In this document: positions 44,899 to 57,507 of the stretch, piece after piece
Numbering within the stretch: the first letter of the stretch is position 1
Layout: each line of letters starts with the position of its first letter
Source of the DNA: Candidatus Dadabacteria bacterium CSP1-2
Lineage (GTDB): Bacteria > Desulfobacterota_D > UBA1144 > Nemesobacterales > CSP1-2
DNA length: 64,000 nt
Assembly: GCA_001443445.1 (NCBI GenBank)
Contig: LDXN01000001.1
Coordinates: forward strand, 49,290-113,289
Direction of reading: 5' to 3'
Translations under genes and position numbers: made by a program
The notes under the pieces: model-generated
What the model was told of the DNA's origin: nothing
Seen by the model: the letters and a program-made list of their open reading frames with translations, nothing else
Databases searched by the model: none

Positions 44899-45993
44899 TT
44901 GATGGCTAAAAGAGATTATTACGATATCTTGGGGGTTAAACGGAACTCATCTCAGGAAGAGATAAAAAAGGCTTATAAGAAGCTTGCTTTTGAATACCAT
45001 CCTGATAGAAATCCAGGAAATCCTACGGCGGAAGAGAGGTTCAAGGATATTAACGAGGCATATCAGGTTCTAAGCAACCCTGATAAAAGAGCCCAATACG
45101 ATAGCTTTGGTCATATCTCGGGTGAAGGGTTCTTTTCAGATGTTGATTTCTCAAGGAATTTTAACGACCTTTTTGGAAACCTTTTTGATGAGGTTTTTAA
45201 TGTTGGTAGAAGGCGTCGTCCTGAAAGAGGCATGGATTTAAAATACAATCTTGAGCTTACATTCGAAGAAGCCGCTTTTGGTGTAGAGAAGGAAATAATT
45301 GTCCCGAAAAGGGTGATTTGCTCGGGATGTGGTGGAGGTGGAGCTGCACCTGGGGGGGAAGTAGTATGTGTGATGTGTGCTGGTAGAGGCGAGGTCAGGT
45401 ACTCAGAAGGGTTTTTTGCAATAAGTAGAACATGTTCAAGCTGCGGTGGTGCGGGAAGAGTAATTAAGATTTCTTGCCATCGTTGTAGAGGAGAAAGGCT
45501 TATTACATCTGAGCAAACAATTAAAGTAAAGGTTCCTCCTGGTGTCAGTGAAGGGGCAAGACTAAGAATTCGTGGAGAAGGTGAGGCGGGGTATCTAGGG
45601 GGTCCGAGTGGTGACCTCTATGTCGAAATATATGTAAAAGAACACCCATTTTTCAAGCGTGAGGGAAAGGATATCTTTTGTGAAGTTCCAGTAGGTTTTG
45701 TTCAAGCTGCTCTCGGCGCAGAGATAGAAATTCCAACACTAGAGGGGAAAACTACAATTAGAATCCCACCAGGGACACAGCCTGGACAATCCTTCAGACT
45801 TAAGGGTAAGGGTGTAGCCAGCCTTAATGGAAAAGGAAAGGGTGACCTTTATATAAGGGTACAAGTAGAGGTTCCAGTTAAACTGAATTTAAAACAGAAG
45901 CAGCTACTTGAGGAGTTTGCAAGATCGGGTGAAGGTGATGAGAATCCCACAGTCAAAAAGTTTTTTGAAAAATTCCGTGAGTTATTTGGATGA
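44899..45993 (+). CDS. dnaJ: molecular chaperone DnaJ
   Basis: J-domain 'DYYDILGV...HPDRN', a G/F region and four CxxCxGxG zinc-finger repeats. Confidence 0.9.
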
Positions 45994-46938
45994 TAGTAGG
46001 GACACGTTGCAACGTGCCCCTACCTCAGGTTTCTTACACATTCTCATAAAATCAAATACATCTTTTGTATTCTTAGGGATTCCACCCTGTGCTCCTAGAT
46101 AAGTGCAATTAATTGCAGCGGTAGCTGAAGCGAAATCTAAGGCCTTTTTTATCTCCCAATTTTTGAGCCATCCATAAAGAAGCGCTCCGTGGAATACGTC
46201 TCCGGCTCCTGTTGTATCTACGGCGTCAACTTTGTATGCCGGGGTTTTAATAAGTTCATCGTTATAAATTGTAAGTGAGCCTTTAGACCCTAGTGTTACT
46301 GTTGTAACCTTTGCCTTAAACTCTTTAAGCTTTTTTATTCCTTTAGTAGGATTATTTTCTCCTGTGTACTCTCTCATAAAGTCTTGGGAAGCTATAAACA
46401 AGTCAACTTTACCTTTTAGTTCGTTAATCCCATCAATATAGTTACCTGCATCCATTGAGACCGTAATCCCTAATTTCTTTGCGATGTTGGCAGCCTCGAC
46501 GTTAGCTTCCATAAACAGTTCGTCAAAGTGAATTGCCCTAGTTTGAGCTATCAGTTCCTTTTTTAGATCTTTTGGTTTAAGTGGAGTAATAGTCCCTTTC
46601 GACCAGAAGACCGTTCGCCTACCACTTTTTTTTTCAATTGGAATAATAGAAAGTTGGGTTTTTTTGGATTTTTCTTTGATTAAACCTGAGGTATCTATGC
46701 CTTCGTTTTTAAGGTCTTGGATCAAGATTCTTCCAAGATCGTCATCTCCTACTTTCCCTATAATAGCGACTTTTAATCCTAAACGTGCAAGAACCAAAAG
46801 CGCAGTCGCTGTAGGTCCTCCGCCTCTAATAGTAACATCCTCAAATTCTACCTTTCCTTCAACGTCGGGGAAATAACGAACTTTCCCGAGGTAGTCAACA
46901 CAGACCTGACCAATTCCAACTACGTCAAGCCGGCTCAT
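45982..46938 (-). CDS. PfkB-family carbohydrate/nucleoside kinase (ribokinase-like)
   Basis: 318 aa with the '[12 protein letters not shown]' anion-hole/ATP motif and a GG dipeptide near the N-terminus. Substrate unknown. Its 3' end overlaps dnaJ by 12 nt (convergent). Confidence 0.8.
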
Positions 46939-47035: not shown

Positions 47036-47320
47036 CTAAAATTGCTTTTTGCCGCCAGCAATTGCTGGAATTATTGATACAATGTCACTTTCCTTTAGCT
47101 CCGTTTCAACCCCCTTTAGAAATCTTATGTCTTCATTATTAACGTATAGATTTATGAATCTTCTTACATTTCCACTTTCATCACAGAGCCGTTCTTTCAC
47201 CCCAGGGAACTGTTTTTCAAGCCCTTCTATGAGTTCTCGGATATTCTTAGCGTTTATTGTTACCTCATCTTTATCTCCCGTAAGTCTTCTAAGTGGGGTG
47301 GGTATTCTTACAGACGGCAT
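47036..47320 (-). CDS. MoaD/ThiS-family sulfur-carrier-like protein with C-terminal GG followed by KKQF extension
   Basis: 94 aa with a beta-grasp-like sequence ending '...IVSIIPAIAGGKKQF'. It is translationally coupled to the upstream ThrC-like gene (2-nt gap). Confidence 0.65.
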   Translation of the reverse strand: MPSVRIPTPLRRLTGDKDEVTINAKNIRELIEGLEKQFPGVKERLCDESGNVRRFINLYVNNEDIRFLKGVETELKESDIVSIIPAIAGGKKQF

Positions 47321-47321
47321 T

Positions 47322-48575
47322 TCAATTACCTCCTTTTTTTCGGCTGTTTAATCTACTATATAAGTCTTCAAACTCCTCTAGCCTTGCTCCAATGATATGG
47401 GGTTTTGATACCTTATCATAAAGAGGCTCCAGGGTTTTAAGCCCGTTTCCAGTAATTGACACAACGATTGATTCATCTCTCGGTATAATATCGTTTTCGA
47501 TAAGTTTTTTAGTCACTGCCATTGTTACACCACCTGCTGTTTCCGTAAATATCCCCTCGGTCTCTGCAAGAAGCTTCATTCCCTCAACAACCTCTTCATC
47601 TGTAACGTCTTCACCACACCCGCCACTTTCTTTCATTACCTTCATTGCGTAGTATCCATCGGCTGGGTTGCCAATAGCAAGGGATTTTGCAATTGTATTT
47701 GGTTTTACAGGTTTAAAAATCTCCCAACCGTTTTTTAATGCAGTAGTGATAGGAGAACATCCTGTTGCTTGCGCCCCATATATCTTTGTTTCTGTTCTAT
47801 CTACCAAACCTAGTTTATCAAATTCCTGTATAGCCTTCCATATTTTTGTGATCAGAGAGCCGCTTGCCATCGGTACTACAATGTGTTTTGGTAAGCGCCA
47901 TCCAAGTTGCTCCATTATTTCAAAACCAAATGTCTTGGATCCCTCAGCATAATATGGGCGTATATTAATATTAACAAATGCCCAGCCGAATTTTCCTGCA
48001 ACCTCGCTACATAGACGATTTACATCGTCATAACTACCATTAATCCCTATAAGCTTTGCTCCATAAACAGTAGTTCCAATAATCTTTGATTGTTCTAAGT
48101 CATACGGAATGAATAAATAGCTTTCAAGCCTTCCTAATGAAGAAAGCGCTGCAACGGCATTTGCCAAGTTTCCGGTGGAAGCACATGCAACGGTCTTATA
48201 CCCAAATTCCTTCGCCTTTGAAAGTGCCACTGATACTACCCTATCTTTGAATGAGAGGGTAGGGTAGCATACGGCATCGTTTTTTACATAAATCTCTCTA
48301 ACACCTAATATCCTTGCCAGGTTATCAGCTTTTAGAAGTGGCGTAAACCCTACGCATTTTCCAATGCTATTTGGCTTATCAAGGGGTAAAAGCTCTGCAT
48401 AACGCCAGATATCGGAGGACCTGTTTTTTATTACATCCCGAGAAAAAACTCTTTTTATTTCATCATATTCGTATGTTACCTCAAGTGGGCCAAAGCAAAA
48501 CTCACAGACATGAATAGGTGCCTTTGGATATTCCTTCCCGCACTCTCTGCATCTTAGTCCTTTTACATAACTCAT
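47322..48575 (-). CDS. thrC: threonine synthase-like PLP enzyme (fold type II) with N-terminal zinc ribbon
   Basis: 417 aa: 'CRECGKEYPK...CEFCFGPLEV' Zn-ribbon, PLP-lysine motif 'PTLSFKDR', Gly-rich loop 'ASTGNLANA'. Could be a genuine ThrC or a ThrC-like sulfur-transfer enzyme. Confidence 0.8.
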   Translation of the reverse strand: MSYVKGLRCRECGKEYPKAPIHVCEFCFGPLEVTYEYDEIKRVFSRDVIKNRSSDIWRYAELLPLDKPNSIGKCVGFTPLLKADNLARILGVREIYVKNDAVCYPTLSFKDRVVSVALSKAKEFGYKTVACASTGNLANAVAALSSLGRLESYLFIPYDLEQSKIIGTTVYGAKLIGINGSYDDVNRLCSEVAGKFGWAFVNINIRPYYAEGSKTFGFEIMEQLGWRLPKHIVVPMASGSLITKIWKAIQEFDKLGLVDRTETKIYGAQATGCSPITTALKNGWEIFKPVKPNTIAKSLAIGNPADGYYAMKVMKESGGCGEDVTDEEVVEGMKLLAETEGIFTETAGGVTMAVTKKLIENDIIPRDESIVVSITGNGLKTLEPLYDKVSKPHIIGARLEEFEDLYSRLNSRKKGGN

Positions 48576-48931
48576 TTCTTTCCTCTTAAAATTAATCTGA
48601 AAAGAATTACCCTTACTTTATGGTGTTGTCAAGAAATAACGGCTATTTTGTAGTTGCAAAGGTGGCTATTCCATCAATTTGAACAAATGCATATGGAGGA
48701 GTCTGGTCATCAGCGGTTAAACATACCCCTGGATCACGCTTCATATTTTTCATTCAAACTGAGTCCGCACCAGCTGTAAATACCAAATCATCTCCGTCTT
48801 TAGGGACTATTTGAAATCCACTTAAATCTTGATTCAGTTTCGTGGTAATATTTACAAAAGAATGAGGTTTTGAATTTCCTGGTTTATTGAATAATGTTTT
48901 AGTCCGATATTTAGAAAATGAGGGTGTAGTC

Positions 48932-49213
48932 ATGAAGGCTCTTTGGAAAAAAGTTGTTTTAGCTGAGAGTAAAGACACGATAGTGGTTGAGGGCAACCAT
49001 TATTTTCCACTGGAGAGTATCAAAAAAGAATATTTCCGTAAAAGTGATACTCATACTACCTGTTCATGGAAAGGGGTAGCTAGTTATTTTGACATTGTGG
49101 TCGCTAATGAGGTTAACAGAGATGCTGCATGGTATTACCCTGAACCAATGGAAGCAGCTAAGCAAATAAAGAATTACATTGGATTTTGGAAGGGTGTAGA
49201 GGTAGTTAAATAA
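48932..49213 (+). CDS. DUF427 domain protein (copy 1)
   Basis: 'MKALWKKVVLAESKDTIVVEGNHYFPLESIKKEYFRKSDTHTTCSWKGVASYFDIVVANEVNRDAAWYYPEP' shares the 'C.WKGVASY...AAW.YP.P' signature with the gene at 54548-55063. Start moved from 48887 to the RBS-preceded ATG at 48932. Confidence 0.7.
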   Translation: MKALWKKVVLAESKDTIVVEGNHYFPLESIKKEYFRKSDTHTTCSWKGVASYFDIVVANEVNRDAAWYYPEPMEAAKQIKNYIGFWKGVEVVK

Positions 49214-51109: not shown

Positions 51110-51379
51110 CTAAATCTGCGTAATTAACTTATCGTAGTCAGCATGTGATCCAATCCAAAACCATATCATTACTTCGTCTTCTTGAACACCAATTGCCCGG
51201 TAGCCACGGCCTATACGGACAGAATAGATAGGTTTACTTGAATGAATTTGCTTAAAGCGAAGGCTCGGATGATATGGGTTCTTCTTCCATAACTCAAAGG
51301 CCACTTTTGCTTGGTGCTGGATATGATCTGGCAATTCCTTGAGTGCCTTACGAAAGCGATCAGTGGTATGCGAGATCAT
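51110..51379 (-). CDS. type II toxin, RelE/ParE superfamily
   Basis: 89 aa: 'FRKALKELP...AFELWKKNPYHPSLRFKQIH...YSVRIGRGYRAIGVQEDEVMIWFWIGSHADYDKL' fits the RelE/ParE-like fold pattern. 4-nt overlap with the upstream antitoxin. Confidence 0.7.
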   Translation of the reverse strand: MISHTTDRFRKALKELPDHIQHQAKVAFELWKKNPYHPSLRFKQIHSSKPIYSVRIGRGYRAIGVQEDEVMIWFWIGSHADYDKLITQI

Positions 51380-51594
51380 TGCTCATTTGAGCTAAGAGGC
51401 TTAGTTTCACCTTTTTGGAATTCGGAAATTGCTTCGTCTGCAAGTGCAGCAAGTTCATCTTGAGATTTGCTGAAAGCTTCAGCCCAACGATGTTCCGAAG
51501 CAAGTTCTTCTAAAATGATGGTGCCGATAGCATCCTGCTCACTTTCGGGCAGCTTAGAGACCTCTTCAAATGCTTTCTTTAGAAGCTTTGTCAT
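51376..51594 (-). CDS. type II antitoxin (putative addiction-module component partner of RelE/ParE toxin)
   Basis: 72 aa, acidic: 'MTKLLKKAFEEVSKLPESEQDAIGTIILEEL...RWAEAFSKSQDELAALADEAISEFQKGETKPL'. It lies upstream of, and overlaps, the toxin gene. Confidence 0.65.
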   Translation of the reverse strand: MTKLLKKAFEEVSKLPESEQDAIGTIILEELASEHRWAEAFSKSQDELAALADEAISEFQKGETKPLSSNEQ

Positions 51595-51969: not shown

Positions 51970-53157
51970 TTATTCGGATTTAAGCCTCAATCCTTTCGGC
52001 ACAACTACACGTTCCAATAAATCAAACAGTCCTTGCACCAGAAGTGCTAGAACAGCGGCGGGGATAGCGCCTTCTAGAATTAGTCCGACATTATCAAGGC
52101 GGATTCCAGTCAGTATAGGTTGGCCGTAGCCGCCTGCGCCGATAAGCGCTCCAAGTGTTGCAGTACCCACATTAATTACCGCGGAGGTTTTAATACCGGC
52201 AAGGATTGAGCGTGAAGCCATGGGTAGTTCTACAAGTCTTAGACGTGCACCTGAGGGTAAACCCAATGCCTCTGCTGATTCACGAATTCCTACGGGAATA
52301 TCTTGAAGTCCTGTATAAGTATTCCTGACAATCGGAAGTAAGCTATAAAGAAATAGGGCTACAATAGCAGGTGCTGAGCCAATTCCAAGTAGTGGAATCA
52401 TAAACACAAGTATTGCCAACGATGGTATCGTTTGGATTATTCCAACAATTCCTAGGATTGCCTGTCCGATTTTTTCTTTCCTGTGTGACAAAATTCCTAG
52501 GGGAATCGAGATGAATATTGCAGCGGCTAGTGATATAGCAACCAGAAAAAGATGCTGCAAGGTGTTATGAACCAATCGGGTTAGAAAAGTTTCTTCTTTA
52601 GGCTCCGTGGTGATAGATAGATTTTTTTGGAGGAACTCTGAAGCAACAACACTCTCCGGTATTCCATCAAGCTTCACCTCAGCATTCATATCAATCATAG
52701 TTTTTTCTGGAATGCGTCCTTCCAATTTTAAGATGGTTTTTAGCACATCAGGGGCATGCTCCATAAGGTCTAAACGGTAAAGAAGGACTGCGTTGTATTC
52801 TGGGAAGTGATGTAAATCGTCATCTAATACCCGTAATTTATAGTAGCGGATCTCGGCATCGGTCGAATATAGATCGATGACGTCTATGCTTCCACTTTCG
52901 AGTCCTCGGTAGGCTAGGTCATGGTCTAATCCCCTTACGTTTGTCTGAGGGAGATTATAGGGTCTACGAAGGCTAGGCCAACCATCGCCACGATTCATGA
53001 ATTCGTTTGTAAATCCAAACCTAAGCTTAGGATGCTTGCGTAGGTCGGATATTTTAGTGATGCCATGTCTTTCTGCAACATCCTCCCTCATACCTATTGC
53101 GTAGGTGTTGTTAAATCTTAAAGGACGACTCATTTGAATGTTTTTCTCAGCTAACAC
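51970..53157 (-). CDS. betaine-type ABC transporter fused substrate-binding domain + permease (OpuAC-like SBD then TMD); 5' part frameshifted
   Basis: The N-terminal part is the C-terminal half of an OpuAC/ProX-like SBD, followed by a BPD permease domain ('SLLPIVRNTYTGLQDIP'). The SBD continues upstream in-frame to about 53390 ('RIKVGSKAFTESVILGEIVAQLAR...'). A signal anchor 'MVLFGTGLILALLFIANTTAG' starting near 53469 is in a different frame. Confidence 0.75.
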   Translation of the reverse strand: MLAEKNIQMSRPLRFNNTYAIGMREDVAERHGITKISDLRKHPKLRFGFTNEFMNRGDGWPSLRRPYNLPQTNVRGLDHDLAYRGLESGSIDVIDLYSTDAEIRYYKLRVLDDDLHHFPEYNAVLLYRLDLMEHAPDVLKTILKLEGRIPEKTMIDMNAEVKLDGIPESVVASEFLQKNLSITTEPKEETFLTRLVHNTLQHLFLVAISLAAAIFISIPLGILSHRKEKIGQAILGIVGIIQTIPSLAILVFMIPLLGIGSAPAIVALFLYSLLPIVRNTYTGLQDIPVGIRESAEALGLPSGARLRLVELPMASRSILAGIKTSAVINVGTATLGALIGAGGYGQPILTGIRLDNVGLILEGAIPAAVLALLVQGLFDLLERVVVPKGLRLKSE

Positions 53158-54547: not shown

Positions 54548-55063
54548 TTACCACTCCTCTGTTCCTGGTTCTCCCTTGAAGGGTCCCACAATGTCGCTAG
54601 TGATCCAGCCACCGTAATAAATTCCCGGTTGAGGTATCACTCTTTCATCATCAACATAGCATGCATCCATTTTTTGAGGGTAGAAAGCAATATGATCTTT
54701 GATCGATTCATATCCAGGGGTAGGGTCGGGATAAGTCCATGCGGCGTTAGCAGCTTTTTTGTCGCCAACTATTATAGTGTAATAGGAAGCAACACCCTTC
54801 CACTCACACACTGTCTTCTTCCTAGTTCTTATAAGGTTCTCAGTCTTAATATCTTTAGGAGGTATGTAATAAACAGGGGGACCGCTGGTTTCTAATACCC
54901 TTTTTGCGTTGCGCGTTTCTGCAATTACCACGTTGTTAAAGATCACCTTGATGAGCTTTGTCGTGTCCTCAATGCGGGGAGGTCGTGGGTAGTCCCAAAC
55001 AGATTCCTGACCCGGTTCTGGTTGAATACGTTTTGGTTCCATGATAATCTGCCATTTTGCCAC
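54548..55063 (-). CDS. DUF427 domain protein (copy 2), downstream of egtD
   Basis: 171 aa with 'KKTVCEWKGVASYYTIIVGDKKAANAAWTYPDPTPGY', the same signature as copy 1. Confidence 0.7.
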   Translation of the reverse strand: MAKWQIIMEPKRIQPEPGQESVWDYPRPPRIEDTTKLIKVIFNNVVIAETRNAKRVLETSGPPVYYIPPKDIKTENLIRTRKKTVCEWKGVASYYTIIVGDKKAANAAWTYPDPTPGYESIKDHIAFYPQKMDACYVDDERVIPQPGIYYGGWITSDIVGPFKGEPGTEEW

Positions 55064-55214
55064 AAAGACACTAAGACACGAAGGTTGAATCTTGAATAAA
55101 GTAGCCGGAATTCTGACTGCAGAATAAGGGTTATGAGTAGTGTCTTCTTGATTCTGAATATACTTTTATAACTCATATTATTCTTTGTGCCTTTGTGCCT
55201 TAGTGGCTGAATTC

Positions 55215-56195
55215 TTACCGGACTGAAAGATATTGCACGCTGAATTTTCCATCGTCATCAGTCCAAACATGTTTGACTTTAAAGACGTCAGAAACCAGTT
55301 GCTCAAAATCTTCAAGTGTGTACTTATAAGAATATTCGGTCAGGATTCTTTCACCCTTTTTGAAGAAGATTTCGTTGTTATTAATATGTACATACTGATT
55401 TCTTAAGCTTGTAAGATGCATCTCTATTCTTCCTTCGGAACTATTATAGAAAGCATAGTGTCTCCACTGAGCTAGATCAAAATCGGCATCCAGTTCATGA
55501 TTGAGCCGCCTAAGTATATTCAGGTTGAATTCGGCAGTAATCCCGTTCTTATCATTGTAGGCAGCCTCTAATACACTTCTTTCCTTTTTAAGATCTACAC
55601 CGATCAAAAGTCCGCCTGTCTTATCTGCTATTCTTGCAATTAGCTTAAGGAAAGTAGTTGCTTCTTTAGGGGTAAAATTTCCGATTGATGAGCCTGGATA
55701 ATATATAACCTTATGTGACCATGGGAGGTTTAAGTAAGGTAAATCCAATGGCTGAGTATAGTCTGCGCATACAGGCACAATCTTAAGTTGAGGATAATCT
55801 TTTGCAAGTGTAGTTACGGATTTCATTAAGTGCTCGGCGGAAATATCAACTGGTACATATCCAGCGGGTTCTTCAAGATGATCAAGTAATAACCGTATCT
55901 TTTTGCTGCTACCACTGCCGAGTTCTATTAAAAGACATTTTTTGCTTAGGCAAGCTGAGATTTCATCAATATATTTGTTCATAATAGTCATCTCGGTACG
56001 TGTGAGATAGTATTCTTCCAGTTCGCAAATCTGATCAAATAGCGCCGAGCCTCTTTCGTCATAAAAGAGCTTACAGGGGAGTTGCTTTTGCAGTTTTTGA
56101 AGACCTTCTGTCACCTCGGCTAGAAGATTTTCATCTTCGGGTTCAAATTTTTGTAGTGTTAGTAAATTGTTATTCATCGTTCGACTGAGGCTCAC
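55215..56195 (-). CDS. egtD: L-histidine N-alpha-methyltransferase (ergothioneine biosynthesis)
   Basis: 326 aa aligning along its length to mycobacterial EgtD: 'FYDERGSALFDQICELEEYY', 'LIELGSGSSKK', 'YYPGSSIGNFTP', 'ITAEFNLNILRRLNHELDADFDL', 'EGRIEMHL'. Confidence 0.9.
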   Translation of the reverse strand: MSLSRTMNNNLLTLQKFEPEDENLLAEVTEGLQKLQKQLPCKLFYDERGSALFDQICELEEYYLTRTEMTIMNKYIDEISACLSKKCLLIELGSGSSKKIRLLLDHLEEPAGYVPVDISAEHLMKSVTTLAKDYPQLKIVPVCADYTQPLDLPYLNLPWSHKVIYYPGSSIGNFTPKEATTFLKLIARIADKTGGLLIGVDLKKERSVLEAAYNDKNGITAEFNLNILRRLNHELDADFDLAQWRHYAFYNSSEGRIEMHLTSLRNQYVHINNNEIFFKKGERILTEYSYKYTLEDFEQLVSDVFKVKHVWTDDDGKFSVQYLSVR

Positions 56196-57507
56196 GAACG
56201 TCTTTAGCGAGCCTTATTCCCATGAATTGCCATCTTGCATTAGGTGGGAAAAAATTACGATATGTTTTTCTAATGTGAGACATTGATGTGGCGCAGGAGC
56301 CTCCGCGAAGTACCATTTGATTACTCATGAATTTTCCGTTGTACTCTCCTAATGCGCCCGGTAGGGTTTTAAATCCAGGATAGGGGATGTATGGACTCTG
56401 CGTCCATTCCCAAACATCTCCAAACATTTGCAAAAGTCCACTGCTTGAAGAATCTTGATTTAGAGCATGAGGATGAAAGTTGCCACTCTCTACAAAATTC
56501 CCTTCCATTGGTAGTTTAGATGTAGCAATTTCCCATTCAGATTCAGAAGGAAGTCTTGCACCTATCCAGCGGGCATAGGCATCTGCCTCGTAATAGCTAA
56601 CATGGGTGACGGGTTCGTCTAGATCAACTTCACGCATACCTGAAAGTGTAAAATACCACCAATGCCGATCTCTCTTTTCCCAATAAAGTGGAGCTTTCCA
56701 ATCATTTGCCTCAACGGCATACCACCCGTCGGATAACCAGAGCTCTGGTCTTTCGTAACCGCCATCTTCCATAAATGCAAGATACTCACGATTGGTCAAC
56801 AAGCGATATGCTAATTTAAAACTATTTAGATACACCTTATGACGAGGGGATTCATTATCGAAGGCAAAACCATTTCCGTCGTGCCCAATCCAATATACCC
56901 CTTCAGGGAATTGGACCCATCTCACTCCGGGTATTGTAAAAGGCCTAGGGCTATCGTGTTTAATATGAAGATAGACCGGATGGAGGGGATTAACTGAGAA
57001 CACATGTTTAATATCTGTAAGTATTAATTCTTGATGCTGCTGCTCATGATTGAGTCCGATTTCGATTACAGGTGCAATTTCCTCCATTTGTGCCAGATCA
57101 GCCTTTTCAAGAAATTCCAACATGTGCTGGTCTACATAATGTCTATAGGAATATACCTCTTCTACAGTTGGTCTTGATAAAAGCCCGCGTTCTGGGCGAG
57201 AGTGCCTTTTCCCAACCTGAACATAATAAGAGTTAAAAAGGTAGTTATACTGTGGATGTAGTGACCTATAGTGTTTATTTGCTTTATTAAGTATGAATGT
57301 TTCAAAGAACCAGCTTGTATGCGCAATGTGCCATTTTGTCGGACTAACATCAGGCATTGATTGAATGACGTAATCCTCTGTGGCAAGTGGTTTGCAAAGG
57401 GTCTCAGTGAATTCTCGAACGATTTGATATCGTTCGGCTAAAGAACTGTTAATAGAATTACTTTGATCTTTTTCTTCAACTTTTGTTATGTTTTTTTTCG
57501 TATTCAT
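56170..57507 (-). CDS. egtB: ergothioneine biosynthesis sulfoxide synthase EgtB (DinB_2 + FGE-sulfatase domains)
   Basis: 445 aa: DinB-like N-domain with 'HEQQHQELILTD' and a C-terminal FGE-like domain 'GDVWEWTQSPYIPYPGF...RGGSCATS'. Overlaps egtD by 26 nt. Confidence 0.9.
   Translation of the reverse strand: MNTKKNITKVEEKDQSNSINSSLAERYQIVREFTETLCKPLATEDYVIQSMPDVSPTKWHIAHTSWFFETFILNKANKHYRSLHPQYNYLFNSYYVQVGKRHSRPERGLLSRPTVEEVYSYRHYVDQHMLEFLEKADLAQMEEIAPVIEIGLNHEQQHQELILTDIKHVFSVNPLHPVYLHIKHDSPRPFTIPGVRWVQFPEGVYWIGHDGNGFAFDNESPRHKVYLNSFKLAYRLLTNREYLAFMEDGGYERPELWLSDGWYAVEANDWKAPLYWEKRDRHWWYFTLSGMREVDLDEPVTHVSYYEADAYARWIGARLPSESEWEIATSKLPMEGNFVESGNFHPHALNQDSSSSGLLQMFGDVWEWTQSPYIPYPGFKTLPGALGEYNGKFMSNQMVLRGGSCATSMSHIRKTYRNFFPPNARWQFMGIRLAKDVREPQSNDE

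Follow-up and report, generated by a model that had tools for sequence, protein, structure and literature searches.

A probable MetM/MetO-type gene pair for thiocarboxylate-dependent homocysteine synthesis in a Dadabacteria genome

INTRODUCTION

The thiocarboxylate pathway from O-phosphohomoserine to homocysteine that was published for Streptomyces albulus in 2024 employs the proteins MetM, MetO, Mec and MoeZ, according to the summary of that work (Hasebe et al. 2024, Appl Environ Microbiol 90:e01247-24) given in GapMind 2026, where MetM is described as a homologue of threonine synthase (ThrC) that is 'often misannotated'. An S-adenosylmethionine (SAM) riboswitch lies upstream of S. albulus metM, as Hasebe et al. 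2024 is cited in PMC12172450, and a Microcystis 'ThrC' whose gene resides beside a metO-like gene is 51.6% identical to MetM (PMC12172450). The present study concerns two adjacent genes, encoding a ThrC-homologous enzyme and a small protein of the ThiS sulfur-carrier family, that are located on the minus strand of a 64,000-nucleotide stretch of the genome of Candidatus Dadabacteria bacterium CSP1-2 (contig LDXN01000001.1). This entire stretch is hereafter called the window. Most likely, the two genes represent the MetM/MetO pathway that is already known, and the locus adds to it a misannotated case from an uncultured lineage.

Several other systems invite comparison. In the CysM/CysO scheme, an E1-activated carrier thiocarboxylate attacks the unsaturated intermediate that an O-phospho amino acid forms on pyridoxal 5'-phosphate (PLP), and a JAMM hydrolase is included in the system. 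The HcyS/HcyD/HcyF/MetY system of Wolinella succinogenes (Krishnamoorthy and Begley 2011) is cited in PMC5764234, and the same source reports that MA1821/MA1822, which comprise DUF39 and NIL-ferredoxin proteins, participate in homocysteine synthesis in methanogens and Desulfovibrio.

A sequence-only reading of the window had proposed that the enzyme is a homocysteine synthase that uses O-phosphohomoserine and a carrier thiocarboxylate, and that the carrier must first be unmasked. This proposal is supported by the analyses described below, and it fits both the MetM/MetO pathway and the comparative evidence.

RESULTS AND DISCUSSION

A ThrC-like enzyme and a CysO-like carrier encoded in immediate succession

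We estimate a probability of about 85% that the window pair is a MetM/MetO-type module that would make homocysteine from O-phosphohomoserine in a manner dependent on a carrier thiocarboxylate. The assignment is based on the gene context of related loci, in which SAM riboswitches, linkage to the carrier, neighbours of the JAMM, E1, CysM and sulfate-assimilation types and a nearby gene for the methionine synthase MetH are found. It is also based on a canonical thrC that the same genomes carry separately and on active-site changes that are specific to the clade. The two genes and their elements, numbered from the first nucleotide of the window, are as follows.

47322..48575, minus strand: MetM-like enzyme, a ThrC-homologous fold-type II PLP enzyme of 417 amino acids (PALP and TIGR00260 matches)
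48495..48551, minus strand: N-terminal Cys4 (CxxC...CxxC) zinc ribbon, residues 9-27 (cysteine alignment and NinF profile)
48246..48248, minus strand: codon of K110, the predicted PLP Schiff-base lysine in the SFKDR motif, residues 108-112 (alignment)
47329..47333, minus strand: GGAGG ribosome-binding site for the carrier gene, within the 3' end of the enzyme gene (sequence reading)
47036..47320, minus strand: predicted MetO/CysO-type sulfur-carrier protein precursor of the beta-grasp ThiS family, 94 amino acids (ThiS match)
47039..47050, minus strand: codons for the KKQF tail past Gly89-Gly90, a predicted pro-peptide (unconserved tails in homologues)

Both open reading frames (ORFs) are real genes rather than chance ORFs, because homologues of each are abundant at 56-99% identity. 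The enzyme matches PALP (PF00291) at 2e-66 in a Pfam profile search. It scores 275.6 bits against the curated thrC model TIGR00260, which is above the cut-off of 167, and 289 against 303 for NF006050, which is slightly under the cut-off. In a PDB sequence search, the nearest solved structures (4e-45 to 8e-54) are those of true threonine synthases from Thermus (1UIM), Aquifex (2ZSJ), Bacillus subtilis (6CGQ) and Mycobacterium tuberculosis (2D1F), and this search did not retrieve any MetM structure. By alignment, K110 is the counterpart of the Schiff-base Lys61 (K61) in Thermus ThrC, and 100% of 75 carrier-linked enzymes conserve it. The four ribbon cysteines (C9-x2-C12...C24-x2-C27) show no variation across a 16-sequence alignment of diverse relatives, and this region matches NinF (PF05810) at 4.7e-08. 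Canonical ThrC structures do not carry the ribbon region, and their alignment to the window enzyme begins only at residue 56. However, the ribbon is not diagnostic for the MetM-like family, because it is also present in ThrC-like clades outside the family. The sequence-only reading had described a 417-residue enzyme of the ThrC fold with a zinc-ribbon N-terminus and a PLP lysine in 'SFKDR', all of which were recovered here.

The carrier matches ThiS (PF02597) at 7e-15 and ends in ...IIPAIAGGKKQF (...IIPAIAGG-KKQF). A PDB sequence search matched it best to the ThiS/MoaD-family chain 4n6e_B (6e-19) and to CysO of M. tuberculosis in complex with CysM (3dwg_C, 3.6e-18), and the latter is the nearest solved relative with a named function. 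The alignments to both chains reach the chain ends at ...AGG; Gly89-Gly90 of the window protein aligns with the terminal GG of CysO, and KKQF comes after it. At the junction between the genes, which reads GGAGG (47333-47329), TAAT, TGA (47324-47322), A and ATG (47320-47318), a single base separates stop and start codons. Because the GGAGG precedes the TGA of the enzyme gene, the ribosome-binding site of the carrier gene lies inside the enzyme gene, a layout that would allow translational coupling. The ORF, the ThiS match and the C-terminus all agree with the earlier description of a 94-residue beta-grasp carrier that ends in AIAGGKKQF. The accompanying statement that this gene follows 2 nucleotides later was essentially right about the immediate succession, but the actual spacing from stop to start is 1 nucleotide.

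Carrier-linked enzymes carry a distinct active-site signature

Comparison of the enzyme with ThrC by hidden Markov model and phylogeny, which had been suggested as a check, was carried out here. A neighbour-joining tree was built from 141 sequences, including 75 carrier-linked enzymes among which are those of the window and of Nonomuraea gerenzanensis. The 75 enzymes exclude four canonical ThrCs and 16 proteins of the NP[YF] type in 30 of 30 bootstraps, and they thus form a separate carrier-linked clade. The exact clade was recovered in 0 of 25 bootstraps because borderline representatives move in and out of it. Among cluster representatives at 50% identity, the motif N-[ILV]-R-x-[YW]-Y-x-E-G-[SA]-K-T is kept down to about 40% identity to the window enzyme, whereas N-P-[YF]-x-x-E-G-x-K-T types are found instead under about 40%, which places the family boundary near that value.

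The following list gives Thermus ThrC residues that are invariant in canonical ThrCs, the corresponding residue of the window enzyme and the share of the 75-enzyme clade that has the replacement.

Thermus T88: window L137, 100%
One-residue insertion relative to Thermus: window I203, I or V in 98%
Thermus S155: window N204, 100%
Thermus N157: window R206, 100%
Thermus R160: window Y209, 100%
Thermus Q164: window S213, 93%
Thermus G187: window A237, 100%
Thermus N188: window S238, S in 61% and G in 38%
Thermus N191: window L241, 92%
Thermus R242: window A300, 98%

In place of the ThrC-invariant residues T88, S155, N157, R160, G187 and N188, the window enzyme thus has L137, N204, R206, Y209, A237 and S238. 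We take T88, N154/S155, R160 and N188 of Thermus ThrC to be residues that bind the phosphate of the substrate. The phosphate ion that is retained in threonine synthase reportedly steers the addition of water to C-beta ('product-assisted catalysis', attributed to Murakawa 2011). A remodelled phosphate site is what would be expected of an enzyme that had switched to gamma-replacement by an incoming thiocarboxylate.

Zinc-ribbon ThrC-like proteins at 35-40% identity (P0307, P0315, P0336 and others) carry the third motif type, N-P-[YF]-x-x-E-G-x-K-T, which is neither canonical ThrC nor MetM-like. Haloarchaeal plasmid genes labelled 'thrC', at 37-39% identity, may belong to this group.

Related loci link the enzyme to methionine and sulfur metabolism

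A scan of one genome per species yielded 80 related loci at 56-75% enzyme identity, representing a dozen or more phyla. Their sources include Thermodesulfobacteriota, Planctomycetota, Verrucomicrobiota, Nitrospirota, Nitrospinota, Cyanobacteria, Chloroflexota, Acidobacteriota, Poribacteria, Aquificaceae and others. Profile searches were conducted on all ORFs of these loci, and representatives were verified with Pfam and NCBIfam. The following features recur around the ThrC-like gene.

Carrier gene downstream on the same strand: 73 of 80 loci
NIL-domain protein, stand-alone or fused to the carrier: 47 of 80 loci
SAM-I riboswitch immediately upstream: 39 of 80 loci
ThiF/MoeB/MoeZ-type E1 nearby: 31 of 80 loci
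CysK/CysM-like enzyme nearby: about 25 of 80 loci
JAMM/Prok-JAB peptidase nearby: 17 of 80 loci

The gap between enzyme and carrier genes, measured in 64 related loci, has a median of 22 nucleotides, and in 18 of them the genes overlap or lie within 5 nucleotides of each other. Riboswitches were counted with a covariance model built from 14 Rfam-confirmed SAM-I riboswitches. Its matches score 68-108 bits and are all on the enzyme strand, with no further match in about 1 Mb of sequence. Besides the 39 loci, a SAM riboswitch is also present at the Nonomuraea locus and at locus L092. Other recurring neighbours include sulfite reductase-TusA fusions, class-V aminotransferases and Rrf2 regulators, and some of the CysK/CysM-like genes are accompanied by a ThiS of their own.

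A full set of genes for sulfate uptake, activation and reduction is present at locus L092 (9744-21254), whose enzyme is 70% identical to that of the window. Here, a single co-directional string behind a SAM riboswitch encodes, in order, the ThrC-like enzyme, sulfite reductase, TusA, the carrier, a NIL protein, CysM, a 68-residue ORF, a JAMM protein, a MoeB/MoeZ-like E1, a radical SAM protein, a sulfate symporter, Usp, APS kinase, PAPS reductase and ATP sulfurylase. The closest two complete genomes (71-75% identical) carry the pair 1.6 kb from the gene for a full-length B12-dependent methionine synthase, MetH.

Two Nitrospirota loci (L026:7856-8947 and L050:1974-3101) have the gene order enzyme, carrier, NIL protein and canonical ThrC. 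The canonical ThrC of L026 scores 328.5 bits on TIGR00260, and because these loci carry a canonical ThrC after the pair, both paralogues that consume O-phosphohomoserine occur in one gene string. About 35 additional PALP ORFs beside the pair were considered as canonical ThrC candidates, but inspection revealed that they are CysK/CysM-like, such that only L026 and L050 have an adjacent canonical ThrC.

A NIL-domain (PF09383) protein of about 80-95 amino acids is encoded behind the carrier in 47 of 80 loci (L013:7275-7790, L049:7520-7759, L059:7532-7771 and L092:12920-13156, plus 43 others). About 10 of these have an in-frame fusion in which NIL comes directly after the carrier GG. NIL is not listed among the MetM pathway components (GapMind 2026), and we found no link between NIL and ThiS-type carriers in the literature searched. 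Fusions of another type occur in an Actinomycetota metagenome-assembled genome (MAG), in which a CysO-like carrier is joined past its GG to a ThiF-family E1 (L053:7235-8302; Pfam-verified, 2.5e-87). Upstream of it, a thiamin-type ThiS is, by sequence, seemingly fused to a CysK/M-like enzyme (L053:4834-5952). These look like Rosetta-stone fusions that join carrier, activator and PLP enzymes.

A SAM-regulated paralogue beside a true threonine synthase in Nonomuraea

A tblastn search of a plasmid collection matched Nonomuraea gerenzanensis, in an 11.85-Mb record that is effectively a chromosome, with 52% identity over 95% of the enzyme. When a Streptomyces orthologue was sought in this collection by tblastn, Nonomuraea was again the only match. 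At this locus (L010), a SAM riboswitch (RF00162, 68.7 bits versus a gathering score of 44.4) lies directly upstream of a ThrC-like ORF with the same Cys4 ribbon, and a 91-residue carrier that ends in ...AVAGG is encoded 24 nucleotides downstream. Pairwise identity between the window and Nonomuraea proteins is 52% for the full-length enzyme and 48% for the carrier. The same record also carries a canonical thrC, whose product is 60% identical to Thermus ThrC, followed by thrB (recognized by its GHMP motif) and rho. In this actinomycete, the zinc-ribbon enzyme is thus a SAM-regulated paralogue that exists beside the real threonine synthase.

The window lacks a riboswitch and the partner genes of its relatives

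The region preceding the pair was examined for regulatory elements.

48576..48886, minus strand: 5' intergenic leader of the operon, without a riboswitch (Rfam and custom SAM-I model)

Rfam searches of the whole window at gathering scores returned nothing, and no SAM riboswitch family was found in the leader with Rfam up to E = 10. The custom SAM-I model, run with filters off, gave 8.1 bits on the leader versus 68-108 bits in 41 related loci. This 8-bit covariance-model match was considered as a riboswitch remnant and was rejected as noise, with the GAGGGA...GGCCC core missing. A promoter and terminator scan gave none beyond the shuffled expectation. Because about half of the family is without a riboswitch, its absence does not exclude the window pair from the MetM family.

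Partner genes were sought by applying Pfam to all window ORFs of at least 150 amino acids and custom JAMM, ThiF and NIL profiles to every stop-to-stop ORF of at least 50 amino acids. Neither approach detected a JAMM, E1 or NIL protein in the 64-kb window, which agrees with the earlier remark that no JAMM protease or E1-like activator is visible there. The Pfam scan of the window likewise revealed no second thrC, no thrB, hom, metX/Y, MetH or CysM gene, no moaE or other moa gene and no Cys_Met_Meta_PP protein.

Sequences past the carrier diglycine vary widely

The GG is followed by one residue or more in 114 of 120 close carrier homologues, and the post-GG tails span 0-47 amino acids across the set and are unconserved in sequence. 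In some near-identical strains (homologues P0122-P0130), the TAG stop codon of the carrier gene (47036-47038) is replaced by a sense codon, such that the tail continues as KKQFWPRMDTDKHELFIF... for about 16-43 extra residues. This loss of the stop codon shows that what lies past the carrier GG is under no constraint.

Among the carriers of 73 broader loci, 37 end at GG, 24 have 1-6 residues after it, one has 14 and 11 have more than 50. Most of the tails longer than 50 residues consist of a complete NIL domain, and one of a ThiF domain (Pfam-verified on representatives), whereas the apparent long tail in locus L066 is probably a parsing artefact. JAMM genes are commoner beside tailed carriers (13 of 36) than beside untailed ones (4 of 37; Fisher p = 0.013). 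The variable tails fit a pro-peptide that is removed, and processing of KKQF in the window carrier is predicted on this basis.

Proposed route to homocysteine

The pathway would begin with the 94-residue carrier precursor, from which the last four residues, KKQF, would be clipped to expose ...AIAGG, most likely by a JAMM/Mec-type metallopeptidase encoded elsewhere. An E1 of the MoeZ/ThiF type would adenylate the terminal glycine of the carrier, and a sulfur donor would then generate the thiocarboxylate. The ThrC-like enzyme is predicted to bind O-phospho-L-homoserine via PLP on K110 and to eliminate phosphate, yielding a vinylglycine-type intermediate as in threonine synthase. In place of water addition at C-beta, the carrier thiocarboxylate would attack C-gamma, and homocysteine would leave the enzyme either directly or once a carrier-homocysteine adduct has been hydrolysed. 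Methionine synthase would finally methylate homocysteine to methionine. For the window protein, we infer every chemical step and also that its carrier loses the tail and that this genome encodes the peptidase and the E1.

Weighing the alternatives

Several points count against a MetM/MetO assignment. The window lacks the SAM riboswitch and the JAMM, E1, NIL, CysM and MetH genes that relatives possess. In a protein search with a JAMM query, none of the top 120 hits is explicitly labelled Dadabacteria; M67/JAMM proteins are present in Deltaproteobacteria and Thermodesulfobacteriota MAGs. The function of the pair is read from its sequence and gene context, and orthology to the characterised S. 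albulus MetM is argued through proxies, with indirect figures such as the 51.6% identity of the Microcystis homologue to MetM (PMC12172450) and the 57-59% identity of cyanobacterial loci to the window enzyme. Furthermore, the window enzyme passes the curated thrC model TIGR00260, a model that does not separate the two clades. Finally, in vitro work on a cyanobacterial member of the clade, from Microcystis, is reported to have yielded threonine synthase kinetics and a threonine deaminase activity (PMC12172450).

The last two points lead to the strongest alternative, namely a genuine or bifunctional threonine synthase, which might be the sole user of O-phosphohomoserine in a streamlined genome, with a carrier that is dispensable or acts in another pathway. 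Such an enzyme would be in keeping with its TIGR00260 score (275.6 bits versus 167), with the nearest solved structures being true ThrCs, with public annotations of its homologues, which all read "threonine synthase", and with the lack of another thrC in the 64-kb window. However, the replacements T88L, S155N, N157R, R160Y and G187A in 100% of the clade are not what a threonine synthase would lead one to expect, nor is control by SAM rather than by threonine in 39 of 80 relatives. A canonical thrC is also present in the Nonomuraea genome and, within the same gene string, in L026 and L050. In addition, threonine synthesis offers no role for the tight linkage to a CysO-type carrier, often with overlapping genes, that is seen in 73 of 80 loci. 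On balance, we regard this explanation as improbable.

A second alternative is that the pair makes another sulfur compound, such as cysteine from O-phosphoserine in the manner of CysM/CysO, a thio-metabolite or a natural product. This would be very unlikely in view of the fold of the window enzyme, which is that of ThrC and not that of CysM, even though the carrier most resembles CysO, which in M. tuberculosis functions in making cysteine. CysM-like genes do occur in many related clusters, but this cysteine-forming partner, which exceeds the TIGR01136 cut-off, is encoded separately there and often has a ThiS to itself. The 4n6e complex, which we take to represent a CysO-type carrier co-opted for thiosugar synthesis in Amycolatopsis, illustrates such a use, whereas the window gene belongs to a conserved, single-copy core gene family that is found across phyla and outside biosynthetic gene clusters. 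SAM riboswitches and adjacency to MetH, moreover, point to methionine.

That the small protein is MoaD, the small subunit of molybdopterin synthase, and adjoins a thrC by chance is scarcely credible, since its labels ('molybdopterin synthase sulfur carrier subunit' or 'MoaD family') and a TIGR01687 moaD_arch score barely above the cut-off (50.2 versus 49.5 bits) are set against matches of merely 1e-5 to 1e-7 to genuine MoaD structures versus about 1e-18 to CysO-type carriers, and against adjacency to a ThrC-like gene that persists across a dozen or more phyla, in 73 of 80 loci. The sequence-only reading had named a MoaD of a nearby molybdopterin operon as the finding that would speak against its proposal; this possibility was rejected on the basis of the CysO-type best matches and the lack of MoaE or other moa genes nearby.

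Within the MetM/MetO assignment, a more elaborate scenario can be sketched, which we offer tentatively and consider possible but not probable. The NIL protein may be an undescribed third MetM/MetO component, its in-frame fusions to the carrier resembling ubiquitin fusion proteins, and carrier maturation by JAMM cleavage, perhaps with methionine sensing by NIL, may be a regulated step. The window lineage would then have lost both NIL and the riboswitch and kept KKQF as a vestigial pro-peptide; or the enzyme might double there as the only threonine synthase.

Other features of the window

A PfkB-family sugar kinase gene (45982-46938, minus strand) lies 97 nucleotides downstream of the carrier gene, a position that it occupies only in this species. 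It was considered as a member of the module, but it is absent from all other loci and is probably unrelated. Several extra ORFs, among them those for a metallophosphoesterase and a TAT-signal protein, separate the PfkB gene from dnaJ in some strains (L001:11475-16353 and L003), but not in the window, L002 or L005.

At 54548-57507 (minus strand), a gene for an EgtD-like histidine methyltransferase (Methyltransf_33, 2e-110) overlaps one for an EgtB-like protein with DinB_2 and FGE-sulfatase domains. This arrangement, which adjoins a DUF427 gene, resembles a gene pair for ergothioneine-type biosynthesis. A further DUF427 paralogue is encoded at 48887-49213 (plus strand), divergently from the ThrC-like gene.

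An OpuAC-permease fusion ORF of 395 amino acids is found at 51970-53157 (minus strand), and its OpuAC match begins only at profile position 73. The corresponding gene encodes 499 amino acids on L001 and L004 and 387 on L002, which suggests a 5' truncation, a frameshift or strain polymorphism. The stretch 51110-51594 (minus strand) includes a small ParE-like toxin gene (89 amino acids), and a Pfam ParE_like match was recorded for the same gene in L001. The 72-residue ORF that precedes and overlaps it probably encodes the antitoxin.

Implications for annotation

The window gene and many of its relatives are labelled "threonine synthase", and their carriers "molybdopterin synthase sulfur carrier", because no curated NCBIfam model separates MetM from ThrC. 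Such labels hide a route to homocysteine and lead to false predictions of methionine auxotrophy in uncultured lineages, among them Dadabacteria, Nitrospirota, Nitrospinota, Planctomycetota and Verrucomicrobiota. MetM-like enzymes can be discriminated from ThrC by the motif ...N-x-N-x-R-P-Y-Y-x-E-G-S-K-T, by L for T in ASTGN-T and by A-S/G for G-N. With the neighbouring carrier and the often present SAM riboswitch as further criteria, this discriminator can tell the two enzymes apart.

The comparative data suggest that the pathway is far more widespread than Streptomyces. The value added here is modest, and consists of the MetM/ThrC signature and a family-wide picture of the riboswitch (39 of 80 loci), the NIL partner (47 of 80) and the carrier fusions. 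Variable tails, NIL fusions and E1 fusions may bear on the maturation of the carrier, and the NIL partner, which is located outside the window, is the newest lead.

Comparison with known systems

Canonical ThrC has the same fold, PLP lysine and ASTGN loop as the window enzyme, and the substrate and first half-reaction are probably the same. The window enzyme differs in its Cys4 ribbon and in the replacement of the ThrC sequence NSVNPxRxEGQKT by N-I-N-I-R-P-Y-Y-A-E-G-S-K-T. Moreover, thrC has thrB and hom as neighbours, whereas the window gene adjoins a carrier gene and neither thrB nor hom occurs in the window.

The MA1821/MA1822 route is an alternative means of making homocysteine that likewise features a NIL domain; among relatives of the window locus, such a domain accompanies the carrier in 47 of 80. 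However, its enzymes are unrelated, its substrate is aspartate semialdehyde, no ThiS-type carrier is involved and none of these genes is present in the window.

The Wolinella system reportedly forms homocysteine from a protein thiocarboxylate, and carrier residues past the GG are said to be removed by a metalloprotease. Its MetY is a fold-type I O-acetylhomoserine sulfhydrylase that acts on O-acetylhomoserine, unlike the window enzyme, which is a fold-type II ThrC homologue.

The CysM/CysO/Mec+ system of M. tuberculosis (PDB 3DWG) resembles the window pair in its carrier, with the window protein matching CysO at 3.6e-18. There, however, CysM belongs to the cysteine synthase branch and performs a beta-replacement on O-phosphoserine, whereas the ThrC homologue of the window is predicted to perform a gamma-replacement on O-phosphohomoserine.

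The closest counterpart is MetM/MetO of S. albulus. The window pair differs from it in belonging to a Dadabacteria/Thermodesulfobacteriota-type lineage, in having no SAM riboswitch, in the four-residue KKQF tail of its carrier and in the lack of a Mec or MoeZ equivalent in the 64-kb window, and its identity with the S. albulus proteins is gauged by proxy (52% to the Nonomuraea orthologue). In both, the gene for a CysO-like GG carrier comes directly after that for a ThrC-homologous PLP enzyme, and the resemblance extends to the SAM riboswitch carried by many members of the window family, to the JAMM and E1 partners of its relatives and to the shared mislabelling as threonine synthase.

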